Assembly (NCBI GenBank): GCA_034004165.1
Contig: JAVEXI010000001.1
Coordinates: 3,450-67,449 of the forward strand
Length of the DNA: 64,000 nt
Source of the DNA: Gudongella sp.
Lineage (GTDB): Bacteria > Bacillota > Clostridia > Tissierellales > Tissierellaceae
Direction: 5' to 3'
In this document: positions 5,786 through 22,969 of the stretch, piece by piece
Layout of the letters: each line of letters opens with the position of its first letter
Position numbering within the stretch: position 1 is the first letter of the stretch
The notes under the pieces: generated by a model
Database searches by the model: none
What the model was told of the DNA's origin: nothing
Seen by the model: the letters and a program-made list of their open reading frames with translations, nothing else
Translations under genes and position numbers: made by a program

Positions 5786-5886
5786 CATCAGTATTTCATT
5801 GTATTAGAATATATAAGTGTGTGTAAGAAGAACCCGGAAACTTCTTATTAACACCTTTAGAAAAGTTGTTGCAAGGAGGGAAAAAT
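5782..5886 (+). promoter_or_regulatory. rplM-rpsI promoter plus structured leader (candidate L13-type autoregulatory leader)
   Basis: TTGACA 5782-5787, 17-nt spacer, TAGAAT 5805-5810; leader hairpin TAAGAAG/CTTCTTA 5824-5847 ahead of the AGGAGGG SD at 5874-5880. Confidence 0.45.
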
Positions 5887-17816: not shown

Positions 17817-18101
17817 ATGAACGAGATTCTACTTATTAACAGAGTAAATTTTAAAGACTATAGTGGAAAAAAGCAGAGAGTATTTTTTCTAATAGGCGGA
17901 ATGAATCTGCCTAAAGTGGAGGAGACGCTTGCCCAGATACTGGATAGCTCAAGGCTGGTAGATAAAGAAGATGTAGTATTTAAATACAATGGAGTTGAAG
18001 TGAGCATTTTAACCCAGTCAATACCAATTCTTATAAAAGCCATGTCTGATCATAACCTTTCTTTGTACTCGGTTTATTCTCCTTATGACCCAGGGCCATA
18101 A
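17817..18101 (+). CDS. Hypothetical small protein (94 aa)
   Basis: ORF with an AAAGGGGA SD 6 nt upstream; coding-like composition; I recognise no motif. Confidence 0.45.
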   Translation: MNEILLINRVNFKDYSGKKQRVFFLIGGMNLPKVEETLAQILDSSRLVDKEDVVFKYNGVEVSILTQSIPILIKAMSDHNLSLYSVYSPYDPGP

Positions 18102-18239
18102 TTGCAATAATTACTGTTTTGTATGATAAATCATGGGTATAACTAATAAGTGCAAATCGAAATAGCATTGCACATATTGGTGTAATAGCTATGTCGATGA
18201 TTTGTTTTATAAAAATAAACTAAAATATGGAGGTATGAC

Positions 18240-18722
18240 ATGAGCGAAAAATTATTGAAAGCATTGAATGATCAGTTTAACTTTGAACTATTATCGGGGT
18301 ACTATTATTTGGCGATGGCGGCATATTGTGAAGCTGAGAATATGAAGGGTATGAGTCATTTCCTGGTAGAACAAGCTAAAGAAGAGTATGAGCACGCAAT
18401 GAAGTTTTACGAATTTATTAATGACAGCGATGGGAGAGCGACAATGCAGGCTATAGGAGAACCAAAAAATGAATTTGACTCATTCTTGGAAGTATTTGAG
18501 ACAGCTCTTCACCACGAAAAAGTTGTTACTTCAAGAATCTATAATCTTCTTGAGATGGCAATTGAAGAAAAAGCACACTCTACCGTTCAGTTCCTACAGT
18601 GGTTTGTAGAGGAGCAGGTAGAAGAAGAAAGTACCATGAAAGATATAATTTTCAAGCTTGAGAGAGTTAAAGATCACTTCCAAGGCTTGATGATGATAGA
18701 TAACGAATTAGGAAAGAGATAA
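18240..18722 (+). CDS. Non-heme ferritin
   Basis: 160 aa; ferroxidase-centre residues in the ferritin pattern (E..Y, EEYEHA, ...E..H); GGAGG SD. Confidence 0.85.
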   Translation: MSEKLLKALNDQFNFELLSGYYYLAMAAYCEAENMKGMSHFLVEQAKEEYEHAMKFYEFINDSDGRATMQAIGEPKNEFDSFLEVFETALHHEKVVTSRIYNLLEMAIEEKAHSTVQFLQWFVEEQVEEESTMKDIIFKLERVKDHFQGLMMIDNELGKR

Positions 18723-18732
18723 TTATACTGTA

Positions 18733-18768
18733 AAAACAGCTCATGAAAAAAATGAGCTGTTTTTTGTT
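18733..18768 (+). terminator. Rho-independent terminator after ferritin
   Basis: Stem ACAGCTCAT (18736-18744) / ATGAGCTGT (18752-18760) followed by TTTTT. Confidence 0.85.
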
Positions 18769-18778
18769 TGTTTTTTCC

Positions 18779-18807
18779 TTGACACATATATGCATATATT
18801 CTAATAT
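18779..18807 (+). promoter_or_regulatory. Promoter with a perfect 14-bp palindrome in the spacer (candidate ArsR-family operator)
   Basis: TTGACA 18779-18784, 17-nt spacer, TAATAT 18802-18807; ATATATGCATATAT at 18786-18799 is its own reverse complement. Confidence 0.5.
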
Positions 18808-18856
18808 GGTGATATAAAGATATTGTTTAATTAAATAGGAAAGTAGGAGATACAGG

Positions 18857-19144
18857 GTGAAGTACGATAAAAAAATACTGGAAGAGAAGGTTGCTTTATT
18901 AAAGCTAATGGCTCATCCTGTCAGACTCTGCATTTTAAGAGGCCTTGTGATGGAAGGGACAAACAATGTATCTTATATGCAGGACTGTCTTGACATTCCC
19001 CAGTCGACTATTTCCCAGCATCTAGCCAAGTTAAGACTTGGTGGGCTAGTAAGGGATGAAAGAAGGGGTACAGAGGTTTTCTATTCCGTATCAAATGATG
19101 AAGTATTAAAAATTATTAACCAATTGTTTGTAGAGGAGGAATAA
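18857..19144 (+). CDS. ArsR/SmtB-family transcriptional regulator
   Basis: 95 aa; winged-HTH pattern ...AHPVRLCILRGL...QSTISQHLAKLR..GLV; Cys25 and Cys44; GTG start 6 nt after an AGGAGA SD. Confidence 0.85.
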   Translation: MKYDKKILEEKVALLKLMAHPVRLCILRGLVMEGTNNVSYMQDCLDIPQSTISQHLAKLRLGGLVRDERRGTEVFYSVSNDEVLKIINQLFVEEE

Positions 19145-19147
19145 AAA

Positions 19148-20884
19148 TTGTCCAAAAAAGTTGTCATCGTAGGAGGAGTTGCAGGTGGAGCGACAGCGCT
19201 TACCAGGCTCAGAAGGCTTGATGAAAGTGCTGAAATAGTTTTATTTGAAAGGGGCGAATACATTTCATTTGCAAATTGTGGTCTTCCTTACTATATTGGA
19301 GGAACAATCGAGCAAAGAGATGCATTATTAGTAAGCACCCCAGAAGCAATTATGAAAAAGTACAATGTCGATGTGAGAAACCTTTCAGAGGTTACTAAAA
19401 TCGACAGAGATAACAAATCAGTAGAAGTTAAAAACTTAAAGACAGGTGAAGTATATAACGAAAGTTATGATTATCTTCTGCTGTCTACTGGTTCCAGCCC
19501 TATTAAACCACCAATACCAGGAATAGATGCTCCAAATATTTTCAGTCTGTGGAACATACCTGATACTGATGCAATAAAAGCTTATATTGACGAAAAGAAA
19601 CCGAAGTCAGCTGTTGTTGTAGGTGGGGGCTTTATTGGCCTTGAAATGGCTGAAAATCTATATGATCAGGGATTAAATGTTGCTGTTGTCGAAATGCTAG
19701 ATCAGGTTATGGCACCTATAGATTATGAAATGGCACAGATTGTACATGAACATATGAAATCAAAGGGAGTGGACTTGCACCTAAAAGACGGAGTAAGCAC
19801 TTTTGAATACGAAAATGGAACAACAGTTATAACTCTTCAATCAGGAGAAAAAGTTTCAGGCGATATGATAATTCTCTCCATAGGAATTAGACCAAATGGG
19901 GAGCTGGCAAAAGGTTGTGGGCTTGAACAAAACCAGCGCGGAGGAATTATTGTAGACAAATATCTTAAGACATCAGATGACAATATATATGCAATAGGTG
20001 ATGTAATAGAAGTAGAAGACTACGTTAACAAGGTTCAAACAATGGTACCACTTGCAGGTCCCGCTAACAAACAGGGACGTATTGTTGCCAACAACATCCT
20101 TGGCTCCTATAAAGAGGAATACAAGGGAACACAGGGAACCAGTATTGCAAAAATATTTGACCTGACTGTAGCAAGTACTGGAGTTAACGAAAAAACTCTT
20201 ATTAGGATGGGCAAAGAATATAAAAAGGATTACAATCTAACTCTTATACATCAGAATGCACATGCGGGTTATTATCCTGGAGCACTTCCAATGACTATGA
20301 AGATGATTTTCGATATGGATGGAAAAGTATTGGGCTCACAGATTGTTGGATATGAGGGTGTCGACAAGAGAATAGATGTAATTGCCACCGCCATAAGATT
20401 TGGTGGAAAAGTGGAGAACTTAATCGACCTTGAACTAGCATATGCACCACCTTACGGTTCAGCGAAGGATCCAGTAAATATGATAGGCTTCGTTGCAGAT
20501 AACTTGATGAGGGGAATGACAGAACAAGTTCTCTGGAGAGAACTAGATGAACTTGATAAAGATGAATACAAAATTCTTGATATTAGGGAAGATGTAGAAA
20601 CTGAGATTGGTTCAATGGAAAATTCTATTCATATACCTTTAGAAGAGCTAAGGGATAGGTTGGATGAATTGGATAAAGACAAAACCTATATCACTTTGTG
20701 CTCGGTTGGTTTGAGAGGATATTTAGCAGAAAGAGCTCTTAAAGACAGAGGATATAAGGCTCTCAATCTGGCTGGTGGATTTACCACTTATAAAAATATG
20801 TATATGCAAAGTGACACACCACAACCTCAGGAACCAAGAGCATTTTCAGATTCGGGGGTTGCAAATACATCGCTGGGAAAGTAG
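19148..20884 (+). CDS. CoA-disulfide reductase with C-terminal rhodanese domain (CoADR-RHD, CoA-persulfide reductase type)
   Basis: 578 aa; GGVAGG FAD site, active-site SFANCGLPYY, rhodanese loop CSVGLRG; TTG start 7 nt after a GAGGAGG SD, 3 nt after the arsR-like stop. Confidence 0.9.
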   Translation: MSKKVVIVGGVAGGATALTRLRRLDESAEIVLFERGEYISFANCGLPYYIGGTIEQRDALLVSTPEAIMKKYNVDVRNLSEVTKIDRDNKSVEVKNLKTGEVYNESYDYLLLSTGSSPIKPPIPGIDAPNIFSLWNIPDTDAIKAYIDEKKPKSAVVVGGGFIGLEMAENLYDQGLNVAVVEMLDQVMAPIDYEMAQIVHEHMKSKGVDLHLKDGVSTFEYENGTTVITLQSGEKVSGDMIILSIGIRPNGELAKGCGLEQNQRGGIIVDKYLKTSDDNIYAIGDVIEVEDYVNKVQTMVPLAGPANKQGRIVANNILGSYKEEYKGTQGTSIAKIFDLTVASTGVNEKTLIRMGKEYKKDYNLTLIHQNAHAGYYPGALPMTMKMIFDMDGKVLGSQIVGYEGVDKRIDVIATAIRFGGKVENLIDLELAYAPPYGSAKDPVNMIGFVADNLMRGMTEQVLWRELDELDKDEYKILDIREDVETEIGSMENSIHIPLEELRDRLDELDKDKTYITLCSVGLRGYLAERALKDRGYKALNLAGGFTTYKNMYMQSDTPQPQEPRAFSDSGVANTSLGK

Positions 20885-21639
20885 CATCCCCAGCAGGGGA
20901 GATCATCAAGCTTAATGCTTGCGGTCTTTCCTGTCCGGGGCCTATAATACAAGTTGCTGAAAGATTTAAAACTCTTAATGATGGTGATATTCTCGAAGTA
21001 TCAGCAACAGATCCAGGATTTTTAAGTGACATAAGAGCTTGGTGCAGAAATACTGGAAACACTTTTATAAGCGATGAAAAGCAAAAAACACAATGGGTTG
21101 TCCGACTAAAAAAAGGACTTGGCGGAGAAATTGAAAACACTGCAAAAACTATAGTATCTGCTCCAACAAAGAAGGAAAAATCAATGATTGTATTTAGTGG
21201 AGACCTGGATAAGGCCATAGCTTCATTCATTATAGCGAATGGAGCAAAGGCAATGGGTAACGACGTTACGATGTTTTTCACATTCTGGGGACTAAATATT
21301 CTTAGAAAGCCTGAACCTGTGAGCGTCAGCAAAGATTTTATTAGCACGATGTTTGGGAAAATGATGCCAAGAGGAAGCTCAAAACTAGGGCTTTCCAAAA
21401 TGAACATGGCTGGAATTGGACCTAAGCTAATAAGAAAAGTAATGAATGATAAGAACATTTCTTCTCTTGAAGAATTAATAAAGACAGGAATCGATTCAGG
21501 CATAAGAATCGTAGCATGCCAGATGTCAATGGACGTTATGGGAATAACAAAAGAAGAACTCTTTGATGGAATTGAAATTGGAGGAGTTGCAACCTATCTG
21601 GATGCAGCAGACGAATCTAACGTAAATCTATTTATTTAA
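20881..21639 (+). CDS. TusA-like plus DsrE/DsrF-like sulfur-carrier domains in the -1 frame of the preceding gene, with no start codon of their own before Met 21184
   Basis: The frame is open from 20815. It reads ...KLNACGLSCPGPIIQ... (TusA CPxP motif), then MIVFSGDLDKAIASFIIANGA...IVACQMS (DsrE-like). There is no ATG/GTG/TTG in frame between 20815 and 21184. Confidence 0.6.
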   Translation, partial: VASPAGEIIKLNACGLSCPGPIIQVAERFKTLNDGDILEVSATDPGFLSDIRAWCRNTGNTFISDEKQKTQWVVRLKKGLGGEIENTAKTIVSAPTKKEKSMIVFSGDLDKAIASFIIANGAKAMGNDVTMFFTFWGLNILRKPEPVSVSKDFISTMFGKMMPRGSSKLGLSKMNMAGIGPKLIRKVMNDKNISSLEELIKTGIDSGIRIVACQMSMDVMGITKEELFDGIEIGGVATYLDAADESNVNLFI

Positions 21640-21643
21640 AGAT

Positions 21644-21680
21644 AAAGCGGAGTGAATTTACTTTTCACTCCGCTTTATTA
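21644..21680 (+). terminator. Rho-independent terminator after the DsrE-like ORF
   Basis: 13-bp stem AAAGCGGAGTGAA / TTCACTCCGCTTT with a short T-rich tail. Confidence 0.65.
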
Positions 21681-21800
21681 CGCTTTTGTATACTAGACTT
21701 GATTATGAGAATAATGTATAATATGCATAGTAATCAATAAATGAAATGATTACACCGTTTTGTTAATAATTAAAACTTAAACATCAAAGGAGGATCTACT

Positions 21801-22346
21801 ATGAATGTAATGACACAAGATAATCTCAGATCTGCATTTGGCGGAGAAAGCCAGGCGCACATGAGATACAGAGTATGGGCTGAAAAAGCTAAAAAAGATG
21901 GTTTTCCAAACGTAGCAAGGCTTTTTATGGCTACTTCCGATGCTGAACAAGTTCACGCTACTCTCCACTTTAAGGCTCTTAAAGATATTTCAGGAGGTTT
22001 TACTGTAGTTTCTGGTGGAGAATTTGGTCTTGGTACAACTTCAGAAAACCTTGCAGGAGGCATAGCAGGTGAACTACATGAAGTTACCCAAATGTATCCA
22101 GCTTACATATCAGTTGCAGAAATGCAAGGAGAAAAAGCAGCTGTTCAGGCAATGAGATATGCAGTGGCAGCAGAGCAGGTACACGCTGACTGTTACCAGG
22201 TTGCTAAGGATTTTGTTGATGCAGAAAAAGATCTTGAAGCTAAGGTTATAGAAATGTGTCCAGTATGCGGATATATTACTCTTACGGGAGAAGAAGAAAA
22301 CTGCCCAATCTGCAGCGCAAAGAAAGCTCTATTTGTTGAATACTAA
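21801..22346 (+). CDS. rbr: Rubrerythrin
   Basis: 181 aa; diiron four-helix part with E..H motifs, plus a C-terminal rubredoxin-like CPVCGY...CPICSA. Confidence 0.9.
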   Translation: MNVMTQDNLRSAFGGESQAHMRYRVWAEKAKKDGFPNVARLFMATSDAEQVHATLHFKALKDISGGFTVVSGGEFGLGTTSENLAGGIAGELHEVTQMYPAYISVAEMQGEKAAVQAMRYAVAAEQVHADCYQVAKDFVDAEKDLEAKVIEMCPVCGYITLTGEEENCPICSAKKALFVEY

Positions 22347-22352
22347 AGATTG

Positions 22353-22380
22353 ACAGACGCCATTAAGGCGTCTGTTTTTC
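22353..22380 (+). terminator. Rho-independent terminator after rubrerythrin
   Basis: Stem CAGACGCC / GGCGTCTG followed by TTTTT. Confidence 0.85.
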
Positions 22381-22402
22381 AGATAGATTTGGAGGTTAAT
22401 TG

Positions 22403-22969
22403 ATGCTGTTTGAGACACTTGCAGTATCTATAGTCGTTGGTTTAATTAGGAAAGGAAAGTTTAAAAATATTGAATCCATCCCAGTAAAAGGATGGCCTTT
22501 TATAATAGCTGGTTTTCTTGTTTACATATCAACATTAATAATTTTGAAGTATTCATCAGGTGCATTATCGAGTTGGATATTTTCGAATATTATTTTGTTA
22601 GTGAGCACTTATTATCTTTTTATAATTATTGGTATTCTAATATCTTCAATGAGTGTCGGATTCGTCCTTATTTCAACTGGTCTGGGACTTAATGGATTAG
22701 CTTCAATAGTAAATGGTGGTAGGATGCCTGTTTCTGCAGATGCACTAAGAATAGCGGGGTTAGAGGAAAATATAAGCTTTCTTTCTGCAGGTAAGAGTTC
22801 AGTTCATATACTGGCTGACTCTGGCACTAGGCTTTATTATCTTGCGGATATTATACCAGTTCCTTTGATAATTCCTAAAGTCATTAGCATAGGAGATATT
22901 ATATTGGCAATAGGAATTTTTCTAACTATTCAAAAATATATGACTTTATCTAATTCGTTGCATAGCTGA
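22403..22969 (+). CDS. Integral membrane protein (DUF5317-like)
   Basis: About 188 aa and strongly hydrophobic with several TM segments; ATG 22403 lies 7 nt after GGAGG. Confidence 0.55.
   Translation: MLFETLAVSIVVGLIRKGKFKNIESIPVKGWPFIIAGFLVYISTLIILKYSSGALSSWIFSNIILLVSTYYLFIIIGILISSMSVGFVLISTGLGLNGLASIVNGGRMPVSADALRIAGLEENISFLSAGKSSVHILADSGTRLYYLADIIPVPLIIPKVISIGDIILAIGIFLTIQKYMTLSNSLHS

Follow-up and report, generated by a model that had tools for sequence, protein, structure and literature searches.

A candidate conserved -1 ribosomal frameshift in the CoADR-rhodanese-TusA-DsrE gene of Gudongella and its relatives

To our knowledge, programmed -1 ribosomal frameshifting in non-mobile bacterial genes is limited to a handful of cases, such as dnaX, copA and csoS2. 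Here we analyse a further candidate in a 64,000-nt stretch of a Gudongella sp. genome (contig JAVEXI010000001.1; this whole stretch is the window, and coordinates refer to its + strand unless stated otherwise), in which a gene for a CoA-disulfide/persulfide reductase (CoADR) joined to rhodanese (RHD), TusA and DsrE domains is divided between two reading frames at the heptamer G_GGA_AAG. On the sequence evidence set out below, we put the probability at roughly 0.85 that this gene is expressed through a conserved programmed -1 ribosomal frameshift, which would give one product of 578 amino acids (aa) and another of 830 aa.

Several described systems provide a frame of reference for this locus. 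In dnaX, a Shine-Dalgarno (SD)-like element lies about 10 nt from the heptamer and a stem-loop lies about 6 nt downstream of it, while the frameshift event in the cdd gene of B. subtilis is regarded as incidental and low-level. We know of no strong downstream structure at the G/GT site of phage lambda. The lambda slippery site is GGGAAAG, which encodes Gly-Lys in both frames and has a stop codon just 3' of it; frameshifting there proceeds at a rate of about 4%, and is higher if U34 of tRNA-Lys(UUU) has no 2-thio group (PMC3296357). Given a stimulator, G_GG.A_AA.G ranks in the top three -1 motifs of E. coli by efficiency, according to a study that also serves here as the source for the stimulators of insertion sequence (IS) elements and for the heptamer class of dnaX (PMC4066793). 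The B. subtilis cdd frameshift is among the references listed in PMC5009743.

The resemblance to the lambda G/GT site lies in the identical heptamer, the Gly-Lys that it encodes, the stop close on its 3' side and the long fusion that would be made by slipping ribosomes; the difference is that lambda is viral, whereas the present site belongs to a chromosomal redox/sulfur enzyme and is followed by a predicted stem-loop of about -31 kcal/mol. With dnaX (tau/gamma) the locus shares its place in a cellular gene, an X_XXA_AAG heptamer involving tRNA-Lys, a stem-loop about 6 nt 3' of the site, a possible upstream SD-like element and the prospect of two isoforms from one gene that would differ in their C-terminal domains. 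However, the dnaX heptamer is A_AAA_AAG rather than G_GGA_AAG, its SD spacing is 10 nt as against 15-16 nt here, and its shifted product is short, whereas frameshifted alleles of the present gene would give a long shifted product. The OrfA/OrfAB junction of the IS3 family and cdd (CGA_AAG) are likewise bacterial -1 slips, among them one in a Firmicute, on xxA_AAG with a downstream structure or an upstream SD element, and their shifted product is a fusion protein, as it would be here for the long form; IS elements are mobile, whereas this site is kept across a clade in a housekeeping-type gene. Judged by its sequence, the site would be of the standard bacterial -1 type, and what would make it notable is its conservation in a metabolic gene of the chromosome. 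In the library of papers that we searched, there was no description linking frameshifting with a CoA-disulfide/persulfide reductase or a pyridine nucleotide-disulfide oxidoreductase.

The open reading frame (ORF) for the CoADR-rhodanese protein of 578 aa, recognized from the ORF list, Pfam and relatives in the Protein Data Bank (PDB), occupies 19148..20884 in the 0 frame and ends CTG GGA AAG TAG (20873-20884). The heptamer, at 20875..20881, is thus in the X_XXY_YYZ phase with respect to the 0-frame codons CTG GGA AAG, and the 0-frame stop UAG follows directly at 20882..20884. One nucleotide back, a second frame stays open over the stretch 20815-21639, with ATG, GTG and TTG all absent before the ATG at 21184, and reads ...GKVASPAGEIIKLNACGLSCPGPII... 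Entered by a slip at the heptamer, it would contribute 252 codons and a stop (20881..21639), an assignment based on translation, Pfam and selection. The resulting conceptual fusion is 830 aa long, with the junction ...SLGK-VASPAGEIIKLNACGLSCPGP and the junction-spanning stretch ...NTSLGKVASPAGE...; VASPAGEIIK and LNACGLSCPGPIIQVAER are TusA-region peptides encoded by the -1 frame. Pfam recognizes Pyr_redox_2 (residues 3-297), Pyr_redox_dim (334-437), Rhodanese (467-550), TusA (587-656, E = 6e-19) and DrsE_2 (676-829, E = 1e-65) on the fusion. The TusA domain corresponds to about 20905-21114, with its catalytic Cys codon at 20932-20934, and the DsrE/DrsE_2 domain to about 21172-21633; both are in the -1 frame and are preceded by the linker between heptamer and TusA, so that the frame junction falls in the linker joining the rhodanese and TusA domains. 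The first-pass annotation of the window had described this ORF and its terminal codons, the -1 frame startless until 21184 with a TusA and then a DsrE-like domain, the heptamer in slippery phase, and a slip product of about 830 aa beside the 578-aa ORF; every one of these coordinates and domain calls agrees with what we find.

With the conceptual fusion as query, 119 of the best 120 hits are single proteins with the same five domains, 817-842 aa in length (with one partial of 756 aa); most of them belong to Tissierellales and other Clostridia. Among the 120, only the 578-aa product of the window itself is a split entry. Likewise, 73 of 80 species-representative family loci have a single open frame 780 codons long or longer, and just three of the 80 GTDB representatives (L032, from an uncultured Gudongella sp., L037 and L038) are split at the RHD-TusA linker. 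The in-frame orthologues have the same domains in the same order within one frame, unlike the window clade, in which recoding would be needed. The orthologue of Gudongella oleilytica (WP_320405139.1), which shares the domain order, is 85% identical to the conceptual fusion, and a -1 slip at the heptamer would yield exactly the peptide of the in-frame orthologues (GK-AVTPAGETVKLNACG). Because the wider family is single-ORF, we take the fused gene to be the ancestral state.

When the 578-aa product alone was the query, with hits clustered at 90% identity and kept if at least 76% identical to it, 15 of the 18 clusters consisted of truncated proteins of 578 or 579 aa ending ...[VL]GK or ...GKQ, and the other three (P0002, P0003 and P0001, the last of which includes G. 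oleilytica) were in-frame. Exact-sequence and cluster look-up recovered four sequence variants of the 578-aa form, on contigs from NCBI, JGI, ENA and Logan. NNG GGA AAG followed by TAG or by CAG TAA is found on more than 50 contigs that stem from various sequencing runs and assemblers, and the split is shared by at least 10 diverged lineages of the Gudongella-like clade of Tissierellaceae, which have only 77-84% protein identity and saturated synonymous divergence. In the lineages with complete sequence (window/L001/L024, L004, L022, L037, L038, L124 and L127) the -1 frame can be read through the whole of DsrE, and its 250 downstream codons have no further stops or indels. Alignment of orthologous loci, which the first-pass annotation had proposed as a test, therefore favours a frameshift: close relatives have the same heptamer and stop, and distant ones a single ORF of about 820-840 aa. 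The contrary prospect that the fusion would dissolve into a separately started TusA gene was not borne out, as none of the orthologues compared has an independently initiated complete TusA. Conservation of the heptamer across the whole protein family was also considered and rejected, as the RHD-TusA linker is hypervariable and V/L-G-K occurs only in the Gudongella-like clade.

This recurrence bears directly on the most prosaic account of the split, namely that one nucleotide was miscalled in sequencing or assembly, or that a deletion has recently inactivated the gene, to which the overwhelmingly single-ORF state of the wider family and the short homopolymers adjoining the site might lend some credence. 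However, the more than 50 independent contigs and the three GTDB species representatives are split alike, which excludes an assembly artefact, and the split persists in lineages with saturated synonymous divergence whose downstream 250 codons are intact and under strong purifying selection. An assembly error or a recent pseudogene, both suggested in the first pass, can accordingly be set aside, and we give this account practically no weight. What survives of the suggested 1-nt loss is its historical sense: relative to the ancestral fused gene a base was indeed lost, but the loss is old and fixed, and the slippery site would make up for it.

Selection was assessed on virtual -1-fused coding sequences, aligned by codon and compared between pairs of frameshifted genomes. 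Between these genomes the -1 frame is under purifying selection, with pN/pS of 0.04-0.42 across pairs. Over residues 579-678, which are startless in the window, L004 and L022 differ by Sd = 32 and Nd = 4 (P = 6e-17 versus neutrality). For other pairs pN/pS is 0.15-0.42, and it is 0.29-0.42 for six pairs of greater divergence, where P ranges from 4e-5 to 1e-9. The 28 codons from the heptamer to the first internal Met called in other lineages, which include those of the catalytic Cys-Pro-Gly-Pro, are also constrained. Such constraint, at a synonymous divergence of 0.5-0.8 per site, would not be seen in an untranslated remnant. Synonymous variability among seven frameshifted sequences, at 0.81 per site gene-wide, is lowered across residues 556-602: the 12 lowest 15-codon windows all lie at residues 572-591 (0.12-0.28), and residues 556-574 have values of 0.40-0.54. 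The conserved split and the purifying selection downstream of it together support the programmed -1 frameshift that had been put forward in the first pass.

These patterns of constraint also weigh upon gene fission without recoding. Under fission, the deletion would have become fixed, the upstream frame would give only the 578-aa protein, and DsrE or part of TusA would be made from an internal Met; in the window, Met 21184 would give DsrE alone, and the N-terminus of TusA would then be dead sequence. Gene callers do start the downstream ORFs at an internal Met (21184 in the window, position 5818 elsewhere), and the family tolerates other architectures, including a stand-alone CoADR-RHD (L130) and CoADR-RHD-TusA forms of about 661 aa. 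However, the segment between the heptamer and the internal start holds the catalytic C-P-G-P and is fully conserved as protein, with mostly synonymous changes between frameshifted lineages, and the window lineage is startless for 100 codons. Moreover, fission leaves the invariant heptamer, the close stop, the stem-loop and the synonymous minimum unexplained, and we regard it as very unlikely.

The heptamer alone is not rare, since the two strands of the window together have 18 copies of GGGAAAG. Just two of these are in slippery phase with 100 or more open 0-frame codons before them, and the one at 20875 is the sole window copy that has both a 0-frame stop no more than two codons away and a -1 frame that stays open for 254 codons. 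The other in-phase copy in a long ORF of the window (16587, - strand) lies in an ABC transporter gene; it looks like an ordinary occurrence, because its -1 frame shuts after 7 codons. What goes beyond chance is the combination of features and their conservation in relatives, not the heptamer by itself. G_GGA_AAG is in phase in every frameshifted lineage examined while the neighbouring codons vary freely: across the lineages, codons 577-578 never depart from GGA AAG, and the third base of codon 576 (CTG, TTG or GTG) is G throughout. In the window, AAG makes up 34% of Lys codons, GTG 12% of Val codons and CTG 17% of Leu codons. In all frameshifted lineages the 0-frame stop after the heptamer is either UAG at once or, one codon later, the UAA of CAG UAA.

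The predicted stimulator is a stem-loop of 53 nt at 20888..20940, 6 nt 3' of the heptamer, with a 5' arm of CCCCAGCAGGGGAGAUC, an apical hairpin of AAGCUUAAUGCUU and a 3' arm of GGUCUUUCCUGUCCGGGG that codes for the Cys-Pro-Gly-Pro motif of TusA. For 20882-20946 of the window RNAfold returns -31.4 kcal/mol (z = -4.36), and none of 200 shuffled sequences is as stable. The same extended stem-loop is predicted in 10 of 10 frameshifted lineages, 6 nt past the heptamer and with energies of -23 to -41 kcal/mol, and RNAalifold derives from these 10 a consensus of 20 pairs. The fold is not formed in the in-frame L028, nor in the outgroups L033 and L034, which have no heptamer. Two rare codons in the 3' arm, CCG (8% of Pro) and GGG (13% of Gly), are invariant; the in-frame L028, L033 and L034 have CCA/CCT and GGT/GGA at these positions. 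The first-pass annotation had placed the structure 3' of the stop in a hairpin of 5 bp at 20887-20900. As a stimulator in its own right this hairpin was rejected: it is not the minimum-energy fold, it is not conserved as such (its 3' half being GGAG or GGTG elsewhere), and it forms part of the 5' arm of the larger stem-loop.

A search of Rfam 15 over 20600-21200 returned zero matches even at E <= 10. A covariance model of the element scores 95-122 bits at frameshifted loci, 86-93 bits in in-frame Gudongella and 60 bits in L028, then 26-39 bits in the more distant Soehngenia longivitae and Tissierella, with nothing significant in about 70 other family loci with the same TusA motif (86 family loci were searched). 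Because these scores drop with phylogenetic distance, they indicate clade specificity and are not independent proof of structure.

Upstream of the heptamer, GGGGGU at 20854..20859 is a possible stimulator of the SD-like kind, 15 nt 5' of the slippery site in the window. All frameshifted lineages have GGGGG or (A/U)GGAG/AGGAA at a distance of 15-16 nt.

Two further routes could restore the frame, one in the mRNA, by RNA polymerase slippage that would add a base in the G3 or A3 run, and the other by termination at UAG and reinitiation at a non-canonical codon, from which TusA-DsrE would result as a protein of its own. Either would also hold the -1 frame under selection, and the very short gap between the stop and the conserved frame would fit reinitiation. 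However, transcriptional realignment needs homopolymer runs of about 7-9 or more A or T, whereas the runs at 20875-20880 are only G3 and A3 and the junction has no long A/T homopolymer. No ATG, GTG or TTG occurs near the stop in any lineage compared, and neither route needs an in-phase X_XXY_YYZ or a stem-loop at exactly 6 nt. Restoration of the frame by either means is, in our estimation, highly improbable.

Single-gene neighbour-joining trees of both protein halves, built without support values, place the frameshifted L124 and L127 at the base of the clade, with the other frameshifted lineages interspersed with in-frame forms. In L028 the frame is restored by an extra A (GGA AAA GCA) and the stem is lost; in the G. 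oleilytica group it is restored by an extra G (GGA AAG GCG), with the heptamer kept and the stem partly kept. For a set of nine sequences, two independent deletions are most parsimonious. In a larger set, an ancestral frameshift with about three reversions requires 4 events versus 5 gains, so that several independent 1-nt losses are less favoured by the trees. An ancestral loss of 1 nt, at a slippery heptamer that the fused gene already had, and a few later reversions would account for this most simply. This history suggests that the site tolerates both in-frame and frameshifted states, and such repeated tolerance is as expected if ribosomes frameshift efficiently there. A slip in the in-frame Gudongella alleles would be dnaX-like, yielding a short product of 585 aa that ends GK-GGNPIR*, so both allele types could make both isoforms in inverse proportions. 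It is conceivable, though unlikely, that in-frame and frameshifted alleles are two settings of one switch, the one giving mostly the long isoform and the other mostly the short.

For the frameshifted alleles, we infer the slippage, its efficiency and the roles of the isoforms as follows. Ribosomes translating the CoADR-rhodanese frame would arrive at G_GGA_AAG (20875-20881), where the stem-loop 6 nt ahead would impede them. In a fraction of these ribosomes tRNA-Gly and tRNA-Lys would slip one base back, from GGA AAG to GGG AAA, and the slipped ribosomes would read on in the -1 frame to complete the 830-aa five-domain enzyme; the remaining ribosomes would stop at UAG 20882-20884 and release the 578-aa CoADR-rhodanese. 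The arrangement would have arisen by loss of 1 nt after a heptamer that already existed, and would then have been kept across the Gudongella-like clade of Tissierellaceae. Its most likely consequence would be that reductase with a tethered sulfur relay and reductase lacking one are made in a ratio that is fixed or can be tuned. Because the slip would rely on tRNA-Lys(UUU) reading AAG, and loss of the 2-thio group raises frameshifting at this heptamer in E. coli, one may imagine by analogy a sensor of sulfur status, in which thiolation of tRNA-Lys(UUU), tracking sulfur or persulfide, would tune the share of TusA-DsrE-bearing enzyme; we consider such sensing unlikely.

Several observations weigh against a programmed frameshift at this site or temper parts of the case for it, and the frameshift remains a prediction. 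Covariation in the stem is thin, with compensatory changes in just two of the 20 consensus pairs; such changes are few because both arms are conserved coding sequence, and for its part some of the nucleotide conservation at the stem could be protein-driven. At position 20892 the window carries A, which makes an A-C mismatch in the predicted stem, where L001, L024 and L116 have G (-33.2 versus -39.0 kcal/mol), and this A may lower frameshift efficiency in the window genome. The SD-like stretch also codes for a family-wide S-G-V, and its spacing of 15-16 nt is longer than the 10 nt of dnaX; for both reasons its role can only be inferred. The window and L001 differ in the TusA segment by 6 synonymous and 3 non-synonymous changes, a weaker signal (P = 0.0065), and because TusA divergence in the window lineage is this small, the strongest evidence of selection comes from sister lineages. 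Finally, the window holds a single tRNA gene, for tRNA-Leu, and none for tRNA-Lys.

The best PDB relatives of the short product are 3ICR (a CoADR-RHD; E = 2e-192), 3NTA and 8A56 (a CoA-persulfide reductase; E = 7e-149), all of which match over residues 2-550. Its CoADR-rhodanese part has SFANCG and LCSVGLRG, motifs with a catalytic role in such enzymes. NCBIfam TIGR03385 scores 521, below its cut-off of 578.8 and so short of equivalog assignment. The long product, which 3PNX matches over residues 676-830, would add a TusA and DsrE-type sulfur-carrier module. CoADR-type enzymes are dimers, and mixed dimers of the two isoforms are therefore conceivable.

Other architectures in the family show the same modules in different extents. 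L130 (1564-3943; protein P0155, 72% identity) encodes a stand-alone CoADR-rhodanese of 577 aa, followed by a 38-aa ORF and a rubrerythrin gene, with no TusA-DsrE. We considered P0155 as another frameshift at the heptamer site and rejected it as a genuine stand-alone CoADR-RHD; because this lineage has no TusA-DsrE, the short architecture appears viable by itself. Proteins P0160-P0167 and P0171-P0177 (about 661-668 aa; Anaerosalibacter and Dethiothermospora) end after TusA, with no DsrE listed by Pfam, which suggests that the multi-domain protein may be naturally cut at varied points. In Tissierella praeacuta DSM 18095 (L052:2400-2520) the frame for CoADR-RHD-TusA stops after ...NAKKKLMK*, where there is a run of A9 (GCT AAA AAA AAA CTA ATG AAA TAG) and DsrE then follows, startless, in the -1 frame; the orthologue in L034 is in-frame (NAKKK-TNEIVSS). 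Three causes are conceivable for this break: an error in sequencing the homopolymer, slippage during transcription, or a frameshift on A_AAA_AAA. P0158 (582 aa; a single member, on two contigs) ends ...SGEKKDKKKNR* where its relatives read ...SGEKKDKKKTDD..., an end that appears consistent with one extra A in an A-rich run of the RHD-TusA linker.

In all lineages a gene for an ArsR-type HTH_20 regulator precedes this one, and ferritin and rubrerythrin genes are its neighbours. The window's regulator gene, taken from the ORF list, is directly upstream at 18857..19144; Pfam HTH_20/HTH_5 is found on the syntenic upstream regulator gene in all related loci, and the ArsR-type regulator is probably an operon partner. 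The conserved neighbourhood (window 17817-22969; L001, L004, L014, L124 and L127) comprises a 94-aa ORF, ferritin, ArsR/HTH_20, the frameshifted gene, rubrerythrin, DUF5317, a PGA_cap protein and CdaA. L127-L129 have additional genes upstream, for a 70-aa TusA, a Sulf_transp (YeeE-like) protein and an Se_S_carrier protein. This context fits a redox or reactive-sulfur role, which family membership would also suggest.

Annotation of these genomes yields a truncated oxidoreductase and an N-terminally truncated DsrE/TusA fragment, so the five-domain enzyme is missed in the clade. If our reading is true, this is a conserved -1 frameshift in an enzyme of redox and sulfur trafficking, set in a chromosomal metabolic gene with textbook signals, and its evolutionary record is unusually clear: a single base dropped out of a fused gene exactly at a slippery site, and the loss was kept across many species with occasional reversions. 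CoADR-rhodanese bearing a covalent TusA-DsrE relay and CoADR-rhodanese lacking one would then come in defined proportions from a single gene, and this mix of isoforms would bear on how persulfide sulfur is handed over between modules.

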